DNA of 64,000 nucleotides, taken from a virus. A program made the position numbers and the translations under genes. Under the pieces are notes generated by a model. The model had not been told where the DNA came from, did no database searches, and worked only from the letters and a program-made list of their open reading frames with translations. Each line of letters begins with the position of its first letter. Position 1 is the first letter of the stretch. This document shows positions 2,434 to 57,104 of this stretch, piece by piece. The DNA lies in IMG/VR virus record IMGVR_UViG_3300037504_001427, positions 23,640 to 87,639 of that record. One strand, 5' to 3'.

Positions 2434-2449
<16 letters not shown>
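1982..2449 (-). CDS. hypothetical protein beginning with an MRYPVG array head
   Basis: MRYPVGGGNDYGCGF followed by non-repetitive sequence; coupled to the array. Confidence 0.5.
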
Positions 2450-5200
<2,751 letters not shown>

Positions 5201-5485: not shown

Positions 5486-5558
5486 TGGCGGGGGAGGGAC
5501 TCGAACCCTCGACCTTCGGATTATGAATCCGACGCGCTACCGCCTGCGCCACCCCGCA
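5486..5558 (-). tRNA. tRNA-Met(CAU), initiator (fMet)-like
   Basis: TGCGGGGTGGCGCAGGCGGTAGCGCGTCGGATTCATAATCCGAAGGTCGAGGGTTCGAGTCCCTCCCCCGCCA folds as a cloverleaf; CAT anticodon; unpaired 1:72; no encoded CCA. Confidence 0.9.
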
Positions 5559-5590
5559 TTGTGTGTGTGTGTGTGTGAATCTGATAATGC

Positions 5591-49492: not shown

Positions 49493-50044
49493 CGCGCCAT
49501 TCCTTTGTTTTCTCGGTTGAGGTTGTGCACCAGACTCACGGGCCACCGAGAAGCTTCCATGCCGCCGCCGCTTGGAGCGGCACCCATGCGTCGCCGAGTG
49601 CAGCGATGCGCTTGCCCCTATCGGCCATCCCATCCACCATTCGCAAAAGTCCGGTGTCAGTCGGATTCCAATGGTGTGCTTCGCAGTATCGCGCAGCGGC
49701 TTTGATCGCCTCGCAGCCTGCTTCTGATAGCCCTCCTGGCTGTACGGGTTCTTGTGGTCGCTGGCGTAGAGCGTCGGCATCAATTTCTTGCACCACGTCG
49801 CCAACCCGTCGCCGCTGTTCGCACTTGCTCCTTTGCGGTTGTGATTCCCGCACCGCGTCAGCGTCGGCCCGACGCGCGAGCATAAACCAACGCCGCCTTT
49901 TGTGCGGCGCTCCGACATCGCAGGCATCAAGTGTACCATCTCGGGGATCGTATCCTCTGTCTCGCAATGTTCGCCAGATTGTTGGCCTGTAGGGTTTGAT
50001 CCGTGGGGTGTTTTCGAAGAAAATCCATGCTGGTCGAAAAGCAT
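49172..50044 (-). CDS. overlapping-frame methyltransferase beta subunit fused to a Gly-rich unit
   Basis: RLTPDFCEWWMGWP (motif IX-like) and PTL repeats in an alternative frame inside the MTase gene; start uncertain. Confidence 0.55.
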   Translation of the reverse strand: MLFDQHGFSSKTPHGSNPTGQQSGEHCETEDTIPEMVHLMPAMSERRTKGGVGLCSRVGPTLTRCGNHNRKGASANSGDGLATWCKKLMPTLYASDHKNPYSQEGYQKQAARRSKPLRDTAKHTIGIRLTPDFCEWWMGWPIGASASLHSATHGCRSKRRRHGSFSVARESGAQPQPRKQRNGAMRYPVGFGDGYGFGFGDGYGDGNGDGYGDGLGDGDGDGNGYGYGFGDSDSYGDGYGDGYGYGFGDSGGYGGGHGFGDGDGDGYGYGNGNGRGYGYGYGFGTVEGRR

Positions 50045-50354
50045 CGATTGCCTGCAGACATCCTCGCCACGTTGGTCCTGTTGATTGCCCGTCCAGTCCT
50101 GCGCGCGTTCCAGCGCAGCTAATATCGCGACAAGAGAAGCCCGCTGCGACACAATCCACGTTTGTGATTCCACAAGTATGCCATGGGTATCCATCGATGT
50201 CTCCGCATATTGTTGTGAGTCCTGGCCATCCATCTGAGGCAACAGCCTGGCACCTCCATTCGTCGTTGTCGAATGCCAGAATGCTATGCCATCCGAGGAT
50301 TGCGCCGGTCCAGAGGCTGCCGCCACGACCGCAGCAAAGGTGCGCTACTCGCAT
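49536..50354 (-). CDS. C5-cytosine DNA methyltransferase, alpha-type subunit
   Basis: LCCGRGG (I), AGFSC (IV, SC instead of PC), FENT (VI), PHKRRRW (VIII), LGDAWVP (X); motif IX absent. Confidence 0.8.
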   Translation of the reverse strand: MRVAHLCCGRGGSLWTGAILGWHSILAFDNDEWRCQAVASDGWPGLTTICGDIDGYPWHTCGITNVDCVAAGFSCRDISCAGTRAGLDGQSTGPTWRGCLQAIDAFRPAWIFFENTPRIKPYRPTIWRTLRDRGYDPRDGTLDACDVGAPHKRRRWFMLARRADADAVRESQPQRSKCEQRRRVGDVVQEIDADALRQRPQEPVQPGGLSEAGCEAIKAAARYCEAHHWNPTDTGLLRMVDGMADRGKRIAALGDAWVPLQAAAAWKLLGGP

Positions 50355-50530
50355 CGCCGATCGCTCAGTGCCGCCGTTGCGCCCATCAGCAAAAACGCGA
50401 TGCTGACAAGTATAGAGCACTGTGCATAATACAGTGCATCGACATGATGTGCGTGTGCTAGGATGTTGGCGCACACAGCGGCCGTAGCCGCGCCGCAAGT
50501 GCTGATGATTATTGCCAGTGGCCTGATCAT
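50345..50530 (-). CDS. small membrane protein
   Basis: Starts at an array-tail ATGA; hydrophobic. Confidence 0.5.
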   Translation of the reverse strand: MIRPLAIIISTCGAATAAVCANILAHAHHVDALYYAQCSILVSIAFLLMGATAALSDRRCE

Positions 50531-51396
50531 CGCCGGCCCTCCGCCGTGCCATAGCCGTAGCCATAGCCGTAGCCATAGCCATTGCCGTCACCATAGCCGA
50601 AGCCGAAACTATAACCGTCGCCGTATTCGCGGCCGAAGCCGAAGCCGCGGCCGAAGACGGCGCCGTTGTCGTCGCTGTAGCCGAAGCCGTCGCCGTTGCC
50701 GAATCCGTGGCCGAAGCCGAAGCCGTAGCCGACACCGCAGCCGACTGGATATCTCACCGCCTGCCCTCCACCGTGTCGTAGCCGTAGCCGTGGCCGTAGC
50801 CGTGGCCGTAGCCTCTGCCGTAGCCGTAGCCGTAGCCGTAGTCGTAGCCGGCGCCGTCGCCATATCCGTAGCCGTTGCCGTCGCCGTAGCCGTAGCCGTC
50901 GCCGTAGCCGCCGCCGTAGCCGGAGCCGCATCCGTAGCCGTCGCCGTCGCCGTAGCCGACCGGATACCTCACCGCCTGCCCACCGTGTGGTAGCCGAAGC
51001 CGGCGCCGTCGCCGTCGCCGTCGCCGAAGCCGTCGCCGAAACCGTCGCCGAAACCGAAGCCGTAGCCTCTGCCGTAGCCGTAGCCGTCGTCACGGTCGTC
51101 ACCGTAGCCGTAGTGACCGAAGCCGTAGCCGTATCCGTAGCCGTCGCCGTCGCCGTAGCCCACTGGATATCTCACCGCCTGCCCTCCACCGTGTCGTAGC
51201 CGAAGCCGGTGCCGTCGCCGAAGCCGTCGCCGAGACCGCCGCCGAAGCCGAAGCCGTAGCCTCTGCCGTAGCCGTAGCCGTCGTCACGGTCGTCGCCGTA
51301 GCCGTAGTGACCGTAGCCTCTGCCGCATCCGTAGCCGCCGTCACGGTCGTCGCCGTAGCCGTAGCCGCATCCGTAGCCCACTGGATACCTCATCAT
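50527..51396 (-). repeat. MRYPVG array, block E
   Basis: Units 50527-50757, 50754-50972, 50969-51175, 51172-51396; three have GTG starts. Confidence 0.95.
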
Positions 51397-51403
51397 CTGT
51401 CCT

Positions 51404-52993
51404 TCACCGTGCCAAGACCGAAGCCGAAGCTGCCTGCTTTCCTAAATGTGGCGACTTGTGGAAGTGGCGATTGATGGTAACGAGCTTTGAACTCGGGTCG
51501 GCGGGGAGCGCTGGAGCCCCTGCTAATGGATACTGCTCTGCGAGTTCTTTCGACAAACGGCCGACTTTATCGATTTCAGAGAGCGCGGATTCGATTGTCT
51601 GCGCGATCCCAAGTGCGAGACGCGGAGGCACGGCGTTGGCAACTTGTGTATACTGTGGGACGAATCGACCTTCTCTTCTGTGACGGAAACCTGTGGTGCG
51701 GACCCCTCGGAATGAGAACCAATCAGGGAAGCTCTGCAAACGGGCGTACTCTCGAACCGTCAGGATGCGTGGCTCGTCATAGTGAAGCAGATCGTCTGGC
51801 AGAGAAGTTATTGTTATGTCTGGGTGACAGTCCTTGACGAGCACCCTCTGTGCGGCCTTGGCAGACTTAAACAGGGCCGGGTCTGACTTGGCGGCTGTCT
51901 CGCGCAGATGTGCAGAGTGGCAGCGTCGTTCCGGTTCGCGCTTCGCGACCCGCTGGAGGAGGCTGAAGCGGTTGGCAATCTTGCTAGTATGGACGGTTGC
52001 TTCGTGGTTGTAGTAGCCTCGGGGATCGCAATCGCGAGATTCCAGCGCAGCGTTTCGCAGGTAGTCCTCCCGCTTTGATCTCAGTTCACGGGCGAATTCG
52101 GAAAGTTCATCATAGCTCCGGCCTTGTCGATAGGCGCAGGGCTTGGTCACCGTTGCGAAAGCGGGTGGGTGCTTCTTGAGGTCACCCAACGCATCATGGG
52201 CAGAGATGTCTCCGCAAAGCGGAATCGGCGCTCCGTCTCTGCGGGTGTACGCAAAGGTAGGCAGAACCCGCTTGGCAAGCCAATCCCAACTCAATGCGGA
52301 GTCGGTGAGGTCTTCGTGGTTGACAAGGTCTTGCCTGACGGAGACCACGAGCAGCCTTCTTCTGCTTTGCGGTACCCCAAAATCATTTGCTCGCACCAGA
52401 TGGACGCGAGGAATGTAGCCGATTTGGCTCATCATTTCGACAACGGCCTCAAGCACGTTGTAGTGTCGTTCCAGCAGGCCGGGCACGTTCTCCATTACGA
52501 CCATGCGCGGCTGGAGAGACTTCGCTACTCTACAGAACTCTTTGACCAGTTGATTGCGTTCGTCGTTGACGAGCCGACCTCGCGCAGTTGAGAAGCCTTG
52601 GCAGGGAGGACCGCCAACCAGTACGTCGATCTGTTCCGGATTCTGGGTTTTCCATTCTTCGAGGCGATCATCGGAGAGGGTGCTGCGGATATCTCCACCC
52701 AACATTACGCCATCGTAGCCTTCATCCTCTCGGAGGGCCATTAGCCGGTCACGGATCTGCTGACGGTGGAGCCTCTCAGGCCCGATCCCAGATTCTTCTG
52801 GGAATGGAGAAAGGTCTCCTAGGATTTCCGAGAAGGAATCTGGCTCGAGGTTGTGGCGATAGGTCCACTCTGCGTCTACACTGAACTCATTCGCCAATAC
52901 GGTCGAGAAGCCTGCTCTCCTGAAGCCAAGCGACATACCGCCTGCTCCAGAGAATAGGTCCACCATCCTGTAGTTATGCTGATTAATCGTCAT
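51404..52993 (-). CDS. dcm: C5-cytosine DNA methyltransferase
   Basis: DLFSGAGG, GGPPCQGFS, ENVPG, PQSRRR, TVREYARLQSFPD and VANAVPP motifs. Confidence 0.95.
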   Translation of the reverse strand: MTINQHNYRMVDLFSGAGGMSLGFRRAGFSTVLANEFSVDAEWTYRHNLEPDSFSEILGDLSPFPEESGIGPERLHRQQIRDRLMALREDEGYDGVMLGGDIRSTLSDDRLEEWKTQNPEQIDVLVGGPPCQGFSTARGRLVNDERNQLVKEFCRVAKSLQPRMVVMENVPGLLERHYNVLEAVVEMMSQIGYIPRVHLVRANDFGVPQSRRRLLVVSVRQDLVNHEDLTDSALSWDWLAKRVLPTFAYTRRDGAPIPLCGDISAHDALGDLKKHPPAFATVTKPCAYRQGRSYDELSEFARELRSKREDYLRNAALESRDCDPRGYYNHEATVHTSKIANRFSLLQRVAKREPERRCHSAHLRETAAKSDPALFKSAKAAQRVLVKDCHPDITITSLPDDLLHYDEPRILTVREYARLQSFPDWFSFRGVRTTGFRHRREGRFVPQYTQVANAVPPRLALGIAQTIESALSEIDKVGRLSKELAEQYPLAGAPALPADPSSKLVTINRHFHKSPHLGKQAASASVLAR

Positions 52994-53001
52994 CGTTTCC
53001 T

Positions 53002-53105
53002 AAAAAGGCCCCTGCGCACATGTAGGAGATGCGTTGATGCTCGGCGTCGAGCACCGGAGCCATGCACGCAGGGGCGATGAAACATCAGTCAGTCAGTCAG
53101 TCAGT
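53002..53105 (-). ncRNA. candidate structured leader RNA or terminator carrying an anti-repeat of the array junction
   Basis: 15-bp stem 53008-53022/53061-53075 with two G-U pairs, an inner 8-bp hairpin and a following U tract; 16/17 inverted match to the junction at 53070-53086. Confidence 0.45.
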
Positions 53106-53364
53106 CGGCATACACATGCATGCCCCAGTCGTCGTTGACTGACACCCGGAAGATCACCGAGCGCTTCGGCACGATGAAGCCGTTCGGGAATTTGCGGATA
53201 TCGGCCTTCGTCGGGTCCGCGATGACCCCATCGAAGCCGATCCGCTCCCAACGGAAAACCCACACCGCGCGGTCGAGCACGATGTGATCGCCGTCTTCGC
53301 GGACGTCGCCGGCGGCGATCCACCCACGGTCGATGACGACGACGGCACGGTTCTTGTTGCTCAT
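53101..53364 (-). CDS. small DUF6948-like phage protein
   Basis: VVVIDRGWI.AG...L..A..V.RW...G pattern; GAGG SD. Confidence 0.5.
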   Translation of the reverse strand: MSNKNRAVVVIDRGWIAAGDVREDGDHIVLDRAVWVFRWERIGFDGVIADPTKADIRKFPNGFIVPKRSVIFRVSVNDDWGMHVYAD

Positions 53365-53384
53365 GGTTTGTCCTCTCTGGACGC

Positions 53385-53436
53385 TGTGCCGCGTTTACTT
53401 GCGGCGGTTGTGCCGCGTTTACTTGCGGCGGTGATT
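53385..53436. repeat. tandem 24-bp dyad repeat, third copy at 56787-56811
   Basis: tgtgccgcgtttacttgcggcggt occurs twice in tandem. Confidence 0.8.
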
Positions 53437-53470
53437 AGTGACCAGAAGCCTGCCCTCTTCGGCGGCGGTG

Positions 53471-54487
53471 TCAAGTGTGAGTGTCATCGCCTGCCAGTTC
53501 TGCCACGAATTTGTAGGCGACCTGGGCCGCCAGTGGGGGAGGCACGCTGTTGCCGATGATGTGGATGGCGTGGCTGCGCTGTTTCGGCCACTTGTAATCG
53601 GGCGTGAAGCCCTGCAGGCGACCAAGGGCCGGGACGGTCAACTGCCGAACCACACCTCTACTGTCGATCACGCGGTTTCCGCTGCTGTTTTTCGACAACT
53701 GGATCGTCCAACCAGGCTCGTCTGCACCTTTGCCGACGCGGTAAACCTGGTACATGCGGCCTTTGAATTTCACTTTACCGCCGCAGCGCGTCGGGTTGCC
53801 ACCGGCGATGAATAGCGGAAGAGGAGGGTGAGGACAGTAGCGAAGCCCCACTTCTTGCCAGGTGGCCAAATCCGCTCTTGGCATTTCGGGAATGAGATCG
53901 GCGATGGCCGGAAACCACGGCGTCGGCGGTTGGGGAAGTGGCCACGACGGGAGCGGATGGCGACCGGCCCGGAAGATCAGCCGGCGGCGCATTGTCGGGG
54001 AGCCGTACTGGGCGGCCTGCAGCACTTGCGCGTCCTGGTGCTTGAAGCCGGCGCGTGCCAGTCCGGTTTTGATCTGTTGGAACACCGGGGCATTCTGGAA
54101 ATCGGGCACCTCCTCCAGCAGGACCACTTTGGCCCTGCAGAGACGTGCGACACGGACGGTGTTTATGCCCACATCAATCTTGCAGACGACCGCCTTGCCC
54201 GTGCCGGCGCCGTGCCTAGTTGCCGCCGCTTTGCCGCTACGGCTGTGGCGTTGGCAGGGAGGTGAAGACACCAGCATGTCCACCGGGTGCCGGCGGAAGA
54301 AGCTGTCGGGGATGGCATCGATGTCACCAACCACGACGTGGTCACCGAAGTTCTGGGCGTAGTTGGCCGCGATCCACGGCTCGTACTCAGCGCCGAAGAC
54401 CGGCTTGAAGATGCCAGGGTGAATGATGCGGGTGAGACCTTCCTCCCAGCCACCACCGCCGGTGAATAGGCTTCCTAGACGAATCAT
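53471..54487 (-). CDS. C5-cytosine DNA methyltransferase
   Basis: SLFTGGGG, SPPCQ, EEVP (instead of ENV), RRRL, GRLQGF and IGNSVPP motifs. Confidence 0.88.
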   Translation of the reverse strand: MIRLGSLFTGGGGWEEGLTRIIHPGIFKPVFGAEYEPWIAANYAQNFGDHVVVGDIDAIPDSFFRRHPVDMLVSSPPCQRHSRSGKAAATRHGAGTGKAVVCKIDVGINTVRVARLCRAKVVLLEEVPDFQNAPVFQQIKTGLARAGFKHQDAQVLQAAQYGSPTMRRRLIFRAGRHPLPSWPLPQPPTPWFPAIADLIPEMPRADLATWQEVGLRYCPHPPLPLFIAGGNPTRCGGKVKFKGRMYQVYRVGKGADEPGWTIQLSKNSSGNRVIDSRGVVRQLTVPALGRLQGFTPDYKWPKQRSHAIHIIGNSVPPPLAAQVAYKFVAELAGDDTHT

Positions 54488-54516
54488 CGCTCACTCCCGA
54501 AATCTTGGTCCCGAAG

Positions 54517-55050
54517 TCATCGCCTACCCTCTACCGAGCCGAGGCCGAAGCCGAAGCCACTGCCGCTGGCGTCGTAGCCACTGCCGAAGCCGAAGCCTTC
54601 ACCGTCGCCGTAGCCGAAGCTGTAGCCATGGCCGGAGCCGCGGCCGTCGCCGTAGCCGACGCCGTTGCCGAGGCCGTAGCCGTAGCCGTAGCCGCGGCCG
54701 TCGCCGTAGCCGGTGCCGCCACTGGAGCTGTAGCCGCGGCCGTCGTTGTAGCCGCGGCCGAAGCCTTCACCGTCGCCGTAGCCTGCTGGATATCTCACTG
54801 TCTGTCCTCCGCTGTGCCGTAGCCGTAGCCATAGCCGTCGCCGTCGCCGTAGCCGTAGCCATAGCCGCGGCCATAACCGCGGCCATAACCGTCACCGTAG
54901 CCGGTGCCGTAGCCGGTGCCGTAGCCGGTGCCGAAGTTGTAACCGTCACCGTAGCCGCTGCCGTCGCCGCTGCCGCTGCCGCTGCCGTTGCCGGCACCTA
55001 CTGGATATCTCATCGCCTGCCCTCCGCCGTGCCGAGCCCGTAGCCGTCAC
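54517..55050 (-). repeat. MRYPVG array, block F
   Basis: Units 54517-54798 and 54795-55013, plus tail remnants. Confidence 0.9.
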
Positions 55051-56514: not shown

Positions 56515-57104
56515 CGCCTGCCCACCACTGTGCCGAGCCCGTAGCCGTAGCCGTCGCCGGTGCCGTAGCCGGTGCCGTAGCCGGTGCCGTAGTCGGAGCC
56601 GGTGCCGGTGCTGTCGCCGTCGCCGTCGCCGTAGCCGTCGCCGAAGCCGTCGCCGTCTCCGCCGCCGCAGCCATAATAGCCGTAGCCGTAGCCGTAGCCG
56701 TAGCCGTTGCCGTAGCCGTTGCCGTTGCCGTTGCCGTCGCCGTTGCCGACTGGCCGGCAGTAGTGAATTTCGGCCCCGAAGACGAAGCCGCGTTTACTTG
56801 CGGCGGTGATTGTAGCGGGCGGATCATATCGCCCAGCCCATATATCACGCATAATGGGAGGACACGCAGCGAGCACGAGTTCGCGGAGGAACGCGAAGCG
56901 CTCCTCCGCGGAGCGCACGCCCAAGACCTCGCACCATTGCTCTATGCGATCGATATCCTGCTGTTTTGGCTTGCTTCGGCCGCACATGAGATCATGCATC
57001 CTGCTATGCGAGAGACCTAAAGATTTCGCCGCGTATCTGGCACTGATACCGCAGCATCTCAATTGTCGCTCGATGACTCGCCCAAGTTCTGTGTACTTGC
57101 TCAT
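56511..57104 (-). CDS. XRE-like HTH protein fused to a Gly-rich array unit
   Basis: ISARYAAKSLGLSHSRMHDLMCGRSKP; junction YCR-PVG then (GX)n-GTVVGRR. Confidence 0.65.
   Translation of the reverse strand: MSKYTELGRVIERQLRCCGISARYAAKSLGLSHSRMHDLMCGRSKPKQQDIDRIEQWCEVLGVRSAEERFAFLRELVLAACPPIMRDIWAGRYDPPATITAASKRGFVFGAEIHYCRPVGNGDGNGNGNGYGNGYGYGYGYGYYGCGGGDGDGFGDGYGDGDGDSTGTGSDYGTGYGTGYGTGDGYGYGLGTVVGRR

Follow-up and report, generated by a model that had tools for sequence, protein, structure and literature searches.

A putatively translated, structured spacer that may hide the dcm start codon behind an Sm-like gene in an uncultivated phage

The 107-nt stretch between a gene with a predicted Sm-like fold and dcm, a C5 cytosine DNA methyltransferase gene, in the genome of an uncultivated phage is best explained as a cis-acting, translated and structured spacer that would hide the dcm start, i.e., as a translational-coupling or attenuator hairpin, a reading to which we assign a probability of about 0.5. 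Judging from its modeled fold, the spacer very likely affects dcm expression. A first-pass annotation had described the stretch as a structured RNA leader harboring a single inverted copy of the junction sequence of the surrounding gene arrays; the structured part of that description holds, but in place of a non-coding leader a 31-codon ORF spans the stretch exactly. The window, i.e., the whole stretch of DNA that was analyzed, corresponds to bases 23640-87639 of an 87,639-bp IMG/VR virus record and thus to its right-hand 64 kb. Direct terminal repeats are present in the record, and the runs that contain the stretch are tidal-flat and marine-sediment metagenomes, with no RNA run among those listed. 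The features discussed below are collected in Table 1.

Table 1. Positions in the window of the spacer, its predicted structures and the flanking genes.
Feature	Position	Strand	Remarks
Head gene with predicted Sm-like fold, 87 aa (P0001)	53101..53364	-	own SD GAGAGGA
Perfect tetranucleotide repeat, (CTGA)5 on the minus strand / (TCAG)5.5	53085..53106		TRF, 5.5 copies, 100%
'Anti-repeat' AGGGGCGATGAAACATC	53070-53086	+	16/17 inverted match to the array junction (SD + ATG + 2 codons)
31-codon mini-ORF	52990..53085	-	from ORF walk; starts at TGATG, ends at ATGA
Main hairpin (predicted)	53008..53075	-	5' arm 53075-53059, 3' arm 53022-53008, two G-U pairs
Inner 8-bp hairpin (predicted)	53036-53055	-	enclosed by the main stem
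dcm initiation region	52990..53007	-	C + U5 (53007-53002), SD AGGAAA (53001-52996), CGAUGA (52995-52990)
dcm, C5 cytosine DNA methyltransferase, 529 aa	51404..52993	-	PF00145, E 3.4e-56

The minus strand carries approximately 45 small Gly-X ORFs with the pattern M-[RKN]-YPVG-(Gly-X)n-GTVEGR(R), which are chained via a conserved junction where the stop codon, the SD and the next start overlap, and cargo genes are scattered among these units. Many genes of the phage begin with CG-ATG-A on the stop codon of the preceding ORF (an 'Arg-stop/ATG' overlap), and all the genes that adjoin the spacer are on the minus strand. The ORFs scanned between 49 and 57 kb code for methyltransferases, one HTH protein and unknowns. 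Three tRNAs are the only Rfam matches in the window at gathering score. A tRNA-Met gene is found at 5486-5578 within a Gly-X array block, adjoining a (TG)9 dinucleotide repeat at 5560.

The gene upstream of the spacer codes for an 87-residue protein whose AlphaFold2 model has a pLDDT of 89.9 and whose top Foldseek matches are archaeal and spliceosomal Sm/LSm proteins (TM 0.56-0.73, E ~1e-3). Its relatives number 63 in IMG/VR viral contigs and 15 in MAGs, and the family alignment (A3) displays 22 invariant columns. In 56 of the 63 IMG/VR relatives, the start of a Gly-X ORF overlaps the stop of the head gene. The 87-aa gene, with its predicted Sm-like fold, thus belongs to a cassette found in phages, Sm-like + Gly-X, of which it is the conserved head gene. 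P0001 has no match in Pfam or PHROG. It did not match DUF6948 (PF22253) either, and only two of 30 family members did so, weakly (best E 0.014), so that membership of P0001 in DUF6948 is not supported. No relative of P0001 was found in GenBank phages, a distant DNA search with 51000-55000 matched only low-complexity Gly-repeat genes, and a literature search found no paper on the Sm-like + Gly-X pair and likewise 0 matches for DUF6948. The phage shares with the cassette both the 87-aa gene with its predicted Sm-like fold and the Gly-X units. In contrast, the position of the partner ORF is occupied here by a putative 31-codon remnant plus the dcm gene: after the head gene there is only the 31-codon ORF, with its head, GSG and basic tail, and full Gly-X units resume past dcm, at 51396.

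As read from the sequence, the mini-ORF fills the gap between the head gene and dcm exactly and terminates with a TGA that overlaps the start codon of dcm. No SD precedes the mini-ORF, whose AUG is located 15 nt past the upstream stop. The encoded peptide has a head of the form MF.RP.V.GSG, including the in-frame codons GGC TCC GGT, and a basic tail, ..STHLLHVRRGLFRKR; the Gly-X ORFs of the relatives have heads of the form MF[RK]P[VI]G or ..F[RK]P[VI]G.G.G and basic tails of the form ..SPHRLRRK. The mini-ORF may therefore be the Gly-X partner ORF of the cassette, with its repeat core collapsed or lost. Its alignment with the Gly-X heads requires three one-codon gaps, and its likeness to the relatives' Gly-X ORFs is not significant at the DNA level (p 0.26). 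The 31-residue peptide has no homologue at E <= 0.001 in 1.84 billion proteins (representatives), as expected for a sequence of that length.

The boundary between the head gene and the spacer has been remodeled. Thus, P0001 ends with DWG-MHVYAD-stop, while nearly all its relatives end with DWGL-stop, being at most one to three residues longer, and the extra P0001 codons (53101-53125) extend into the (CTGA) tract. This tract is the sole tetranucleotide repeat of at least four copies in the genome. It is perfect and places a TGA in each of the three minus-strand frames, as the first-pass annotation had observed; its first TGA (53103-53101) is the stop codon of the head gene, and its last one abuts the ATG of the mini-ORF as TGATG. 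If the tract is reduced to a single copy, the resulting sequence, GACTGATGTTT, is identical to the head-gene/Gly-X boundary of two relatives (L040 and L043). Tetranucleotide-repeat contingency loci are known for methyltransferases (phasevarions). The arrangement of the phage shares with them a perfect tetranucleotide tract directly upstream of a DNA methyltransferase gene, and it differs from them in that the tract is between ORFs, so that its copy number would alter the stop-to-start spacing and not the frame of the methyltransferase. No copy-number variant of the tract was seen in the contigs of the source run, and a different length is hinted at only by a single contig of low depth from another run, X2 (see below).

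Downstream of the tract lies the predicted hairpin. The first-pass annotation had proposed a 15-bp stem with two G-U pairs that encloses an 8-bp hairpin and is followed by CUUUUU and the dcm RBS, and folding reproduces this architecture, with an outer stem of 15-17 bp. The minus-strand RNA of 53000-53090 has a minimum free energy of -44 kcal/mol (z = -5.94), and none of 200 shuffled sequences folds as well; in a context of 126 nt, the z score is -2.96. After adjustment for GC content, the hairpin ranks among the top 0.4-1.2% most structured 100-nt minus-strand windows genome-wide. It is similar to a terminator in that its GC-rich stem is followed by C + U5, with a loop region of 38 nt. A consensus terminator scan did not call it, because this 'loop' is so long and contains the inner hairpin. 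A search of Rfam with 52900-53500 yielded no family at E <= 5.

The fold, which is a thermodynamic prediction on one sequence, would mask the initiation region of dcm. The hexamer CGAUGA, which contains the dcm AUG, is predicted to pair with UCAUCG (53080-53075), near the beginning of the mini-ORF, while CCCCU and the next bases would pair with the 3' arm. In three sequence contexts, the dcm AUG has an unpaired probability of 0.00-0.01, and the AGG within the SD one of 0.07-0.16. The dcm initiation region and the array junctions have a common GGGG...CGAUGA grammar.

The masked AUG is likely to be the genuine start of dcm, since a basic residue that precedes MVDLF is conserved in the homologues (alignment A1). 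The homologue alignment thus favors the ATG at 52993 over a shorter call of 510 aa. In the public databases, an identical dcm (P0002, 510 aa) has been called with a start 19 codons downstream, which would lose motif I (DLFSGAGG). Beyond this identical protein (100%), the homologues include P0003, with 78% identity, which is encoded on a JGI contig of 1,970 nt with ~950 nt upstream of the gene. In IMG/VR, neither the dcm protein nor P0003 nor an exact 24-nt pattern taken from the spacer gave a match, and a metagenome search (alignment A2) returned only distant methyltransferases, with 25-40% identity. Three genes for C5 cytosine methyltransferases (PF00145; 399, 529, and 338 aa) are found within 5 kb, at 49536-54487, where they are interleaved with Gly-X units.

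Among the inspected relatives of the head gene, only three have a spacer in front of the Gly-X ORF (L021:3256-3330, L033:3244-3318 and L044:3238-3305). Each of these spacers contains an unrelated GC-rich hairpin, with stems of 8-12 bp, and that of L021 lies within the Gly-X ORF and is followed by UUUU. As all three gap-bearing relatives carry unrelated hairpins, a hairpin at this position might be a recurrent solution.

The scenario that we infer for the origin, translation, coupling, and termination of the spacer is as follows. In the ancestral cassette, the head gene would have been succeeded by a Gly-X ORF whose start overlapped the stop of the head gene. This ORF would now be reduced to 31 codons, having kept its head, its basic tail and a CGATGA overlap with the dcm cargo. 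The 5' part of the mini-ORF, UCAUCG-CCCCUGCGUGCAUGG, is predicted to fold back on CAUGUGCGCAGGGG and CGAUGA, so that the dcm AUG, together with a portion of the SD, would be locked in a hairpin of -44 to -46 kcal/mol that resembles an intrinsic terminator. Ribosomes that finish the head gene would re-initiate at the nearby start of the mini-ORF, unwind the hairpin and end translation at the dcm AUG, and dcm would be made only then, by 'RNA-unfolding' coupling. Untranslated transcripts, on the other hand, may terminate at the U tract. The likeness of the spacer to the array junctions would be a by-product with several local causes, namely the GAUG stop/start overlap, the UUU codon for Phe2, as in the relatives (MF..), the CAUCG 'anti-start' for dcm, and the CCCCU of the stem arm.

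Translational coupling by RNA unfolding, where a long hairpin is present just upstream of the downstream gene, is an established mechanism, as reviewed in (PMC12548453), with genes VII/IX of phage f1 and the coat, lysis and replicase genes of MS2 as examples. The spacer has in common with these systems its setting in a phage operon and a hairpin partly contained in the upstream ORF that buries the RBS and the AUG (PMC12548453). Here, the stop and start codons overlap as ATGA, the mini-ORF contains both arms of the hairpin, and the downstream start and SD are sequestered in the prediction. It differs from them in that its upstream ORF has only 31 codons and would be re-initiated past the preceding stop across (CTGA)5, and in that its hairpin also carries a U tract. 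The spacer can similarly be compared with attenuators that combine a leader ORF and a terminator, with which it shares a GC-rich stem and then a U run between co-oriented genes, as well as a short ORF that runs through the 5' arm, whose translation could prevent formation of the terminator. In contrast with attenuators, it lacks both an alternative anti-terminator pairing and regulatory codons within the mini-ORF, and in contrast with intrinsic terminators it has a 38-nt loop region with an inner hairpin and only five U, and went uncalled by the consensus scan. The proposal of the first-pass annotation that the element is an attenuator or an array-linked regulator is thus retained in its first part, since what lies immediately ahead of dcm is a terminator-like element with strong predicted structure. 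Its second part, an action on the arrays, fares poorly, as the putative seed is buried and is not conserved (see below).

The rival explanation that survives best is a plain one, in which the hairpin is a partial intrinsic terminator or a 3'-end stabilizing hairpin after the Sm-like gene, lowering read-through into dcm or protecting the head-gene mRNA, while the 31-codon frame is accidental and untranslated and the junction likeness is due to chance. We consider this to be possible though unlikely. The GC-rich stem with U5 one base later fits it well, as do the unrelated hairpins at the same place in the three relatives, one of them with UUUU. In addition, an open and correctly phased frame of 31 codons in DNA of ~60% GC has a chance of roughly 0.1 by our own estimate, and the look-elsewhere expectation for the junction match (0.11-0.19) and its nhmmer E value (2.4), both detailed below, are compatible with coincidence. 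On the other hand, the 38-nt 'loop' with its inner hairpin is unusual enough that the consensus scan did not call it, and full termination would silence dcm, because only five U are present and are immediately followed by the dcm SD and AUG. Moreover, the pairing of the predicted outer helix falls exactly on the dcm AUG, which is unnecessary for a mere terminator.

How much weight the junction likeness can bear depends on the statistics of the match. The minus-strand RNA of the anti-repeat, GAUGUUUCAUCGCCCCU, comprises the start of the mini-ORF (AUG UUU CAU CGC CCC), and then the 5' strand of the hairpin. Whether the window or the complete record of 87,639 bp is searched, AGGGGCGATGAAACATC is the only + strand occurrence of the junction 17-mer at <=3 mismatches, the other 16 copies all being on the minus strand, which agrees with the claim of the first-pass annotation that the 16/17 inverted copy is the sole one in opposite orientation. 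Analytic k-mer expectations for a match at <=1 mismatch amount to 0.003-0.006 in the register chosen by that annotation, with 17 junction variants, and to 0.11-0.19 over all registers of the 35-nt junction. Smith-Waterman comparison of the spacer with the antisense junctions gave p values of 0.005-0.015 against dinucleotide shuffles, and the gapped alignment extends over 20/21 positions with one gap. With blastn-short, the junction match has an E value of 0.18, and an nhmmer profile built from 33 junction copies scored the inverted match at 4.9 bits (E 2.4). The match is thus only marginally better than shuffled sequence; in terms of sequence similarity it is borderline and only moderately above chance, i.e., suggestive but not compelling. 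To regard it as a by-product of local causes is an argument, not a demonstration, because the antisense junction match is the statistically best-supported similarity of the spacer.

The same alignment might reflect the origin of the spacer rather than its function. In this scenario, a fold-back or template-switch event would have produced an inverted duplication of the junction, or an inverted fragment of the 5' end of a unit would have been left behind, upon insertion of dcm downstream of the head gene; later expansion of the CAGT in the junction's ATCCAGTAGG would have given the tetranucleotide repeat, and the whole would be a non-functional scar. The best alignment of the spacer is indeed with the antisense junction (ACT-GATGTTTCATCGCCCCT vs. 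ACTGGATATTTCATCGCCCCT, 20/21 with one gap), the stem arms form an inverted repeat with two transitions, and the arrangement is lineage-specific. In contrast, the profile HMM extends the match no further than 15 nt, and the best-matching junction variant comes from the distant block 1 and not from neighboring units. As a scar would also leave the exact stop/start overlaps at both ends and the pairing with the dcm AUG unexplained, we regard it as improbable.

A regulatory link with the arrays was part of the first-pass annotation, which had invoked a toehold-type antisense regulator. According to this hypothesis, the 3' end of the Sm-like transcript would act in trans, with a 17-nt seed on the SD and AUG of the Gly-X units, to repress or to process them. 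Its targets would chiefly be the 12 units of the block at 2440-4708, the Sm-like protein might be a chaperone, and pairing would free the dcm start. The annotated 17-nt pairing with the array SD and start, in which differences become G-U pairs, was recovered for three junction variants of block 1, found in 12 units: the anti-repeat RNA makes 17 contiguous pairs with all three, G-U pairs included, with energies of -27 to -29 kcal/mol, while with the other junction variants tested it makes 13-15. In addition, the match beats shuffles in a narrow test, and the succession of seed, hairpin, and U tract is found directly 3' of a gene with a confidently predicted Sm-like fold. Opening of the 17-mer would cost approximately 18.7 kcal/mol, which leaves a favorable net pairing energy, and its first three nucleotides (GAU), predicted to be mostly free, together with the next 3-4, predicted to be partly free, might serve as a toehold.

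The accessibility of this seed and its distribution argue against such a role. In the predicted structure, cis pairing takes up 11 of the 17 bases of the anti-repeat, of which six bind the region of the dcm start codon and five the 3' arm, and 10 of the 17, with unpaired probabilities <=0.07, lie hidden within a very stable local stem. Across 78 related loci (405 kb, with 161 Gly-X-like starts), no Gly-X start has an inverted copy in its own locus at <=1 mismatch. The one near relative is represented by a 323-nt contig of run X2, which comes from another tidal-flat sample and has a depth of 3.7. This contig shares 96% identity with our sequence over the head gene region, 53094-53341, and departs from it inside the (CTGA) tract, aligning to at most three copies of the repeat, without continuation into the anti-repeat. 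Thirty letters of this single low-depth contig, which may not abut the break, consist of GGC-NNC codons on the array strand and not of the anti-repeat; coverage of the stretch by runs X2 and X3 is limited to small portions. Finally, the element matches no Rfam family, the profile test is not significant, only five U follow the stem, and the target block belongs to a different transcription unit, at a distance of 48 kb. We therefore hold antisense action in trans to be quite doubtful. An even bolder combination, in which the 3' end of the mRNA, together with an Sm-like chaperone, invades, from a toehold, the SD and AUG of a dozen or more Gly-X units and thereby unlocks dcm, such that translation of the micro-genes and production of the methyltransferase are opposed, with (CTGA)n as a spacer tunable by slippage, appears to us highly speculative and scarcely probable.

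The other suggestion of the first-pass annotation, a tracr-like processing guide, has nothing to rest on, because the arrays are not repeat-spacer arrays but chains of translationally coupled ORFs whose junction holds the stop, SD, and start. The spacer does resemble tracrRNA anti-repeats and Hfq-dependent 3'UTR sRNAs, in that a repeat-complementary stretch, a hairpin and a U tract adjoin one another next to a gene for a protein with a predicted Sm fold. In contrast with both, its seed is mostly paired in cis and is not conserved, and the targets would be the starts of coding micro-genes rather than CRISPR repeats.

A phase-variable small gene on the + strand, with AGGGG-CG-ATG (53070-53079) as RBS and start and with (CAGT)5 after its third codon slipping the frame, has an SD-like AGGGG 2 nt before the ATG, the classical contingency-locus layout of a tetranucleotide repeat just inside the ORF, and frames that 4 or 7 repeat copies would extend to 68-72 aa, but it is barely credible, given that its present frame has only 21 aa, that all its frames are antisense to the conserved Sm-like gene, without family match or conservation, and that the neighboring genes are all on the minus strand. 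The ORF MKHQSV... and its repeat-number variants were rejected, as they look like noise antisense to a conserved gene.

If the spacer does act in cis as a coupling element, a cargo enzyme, the third C5 methyltransferase and potentially a harmful one, would be kept dependent on the translation of the preceding gene. Such control of dcm would be set in the context of a phage that chains dozens of genes by stop/start overlaps, and a gene of the cassette could decay into a purely regulatory mini-ORF. The analysis also anchors the 87-aa gene as the head gene of a still unexplained Sm-like + Gly-X cassette, indicates that cargo such as dcm can be inserted between a head gene and its array, and removes the tracr-like reading, appealing as it is, for want of support. 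The Sm-like + Gly-X system in which the spacer is embedded is more remarkable than the spacer itself.

Two further observations were made in the vicinity. In the source run (X1), one short contig joins 54573 to 51378 and thereby omits 3,194 nt, namely the gene for the 338-aa methyltransferase (dcm338), the Sm-like gene, the spacer, and the gene for the 529-aa enzyme (depth 60 vs. 80). One side of this joint consists of just 25 nt within Gly-X repeats, so that a repeat path is more probable than a deletion variant. In addition, a perfect 24-nt tandem duplication is present at 53385-53432, where 106 nt separate the stop of dcm338 from the start of the Sm-like gene (fold z -2.75), and each copy contains a minus-strand hairpin, GCCGCAAGTAAACGCGGC. 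A third exact copy is found 3.4 kb upstream, at 56787-56804, with an identical left flank, AATCACC, and this hairpin motif may be a candidate operator or a protein- or RNA-binding motif.
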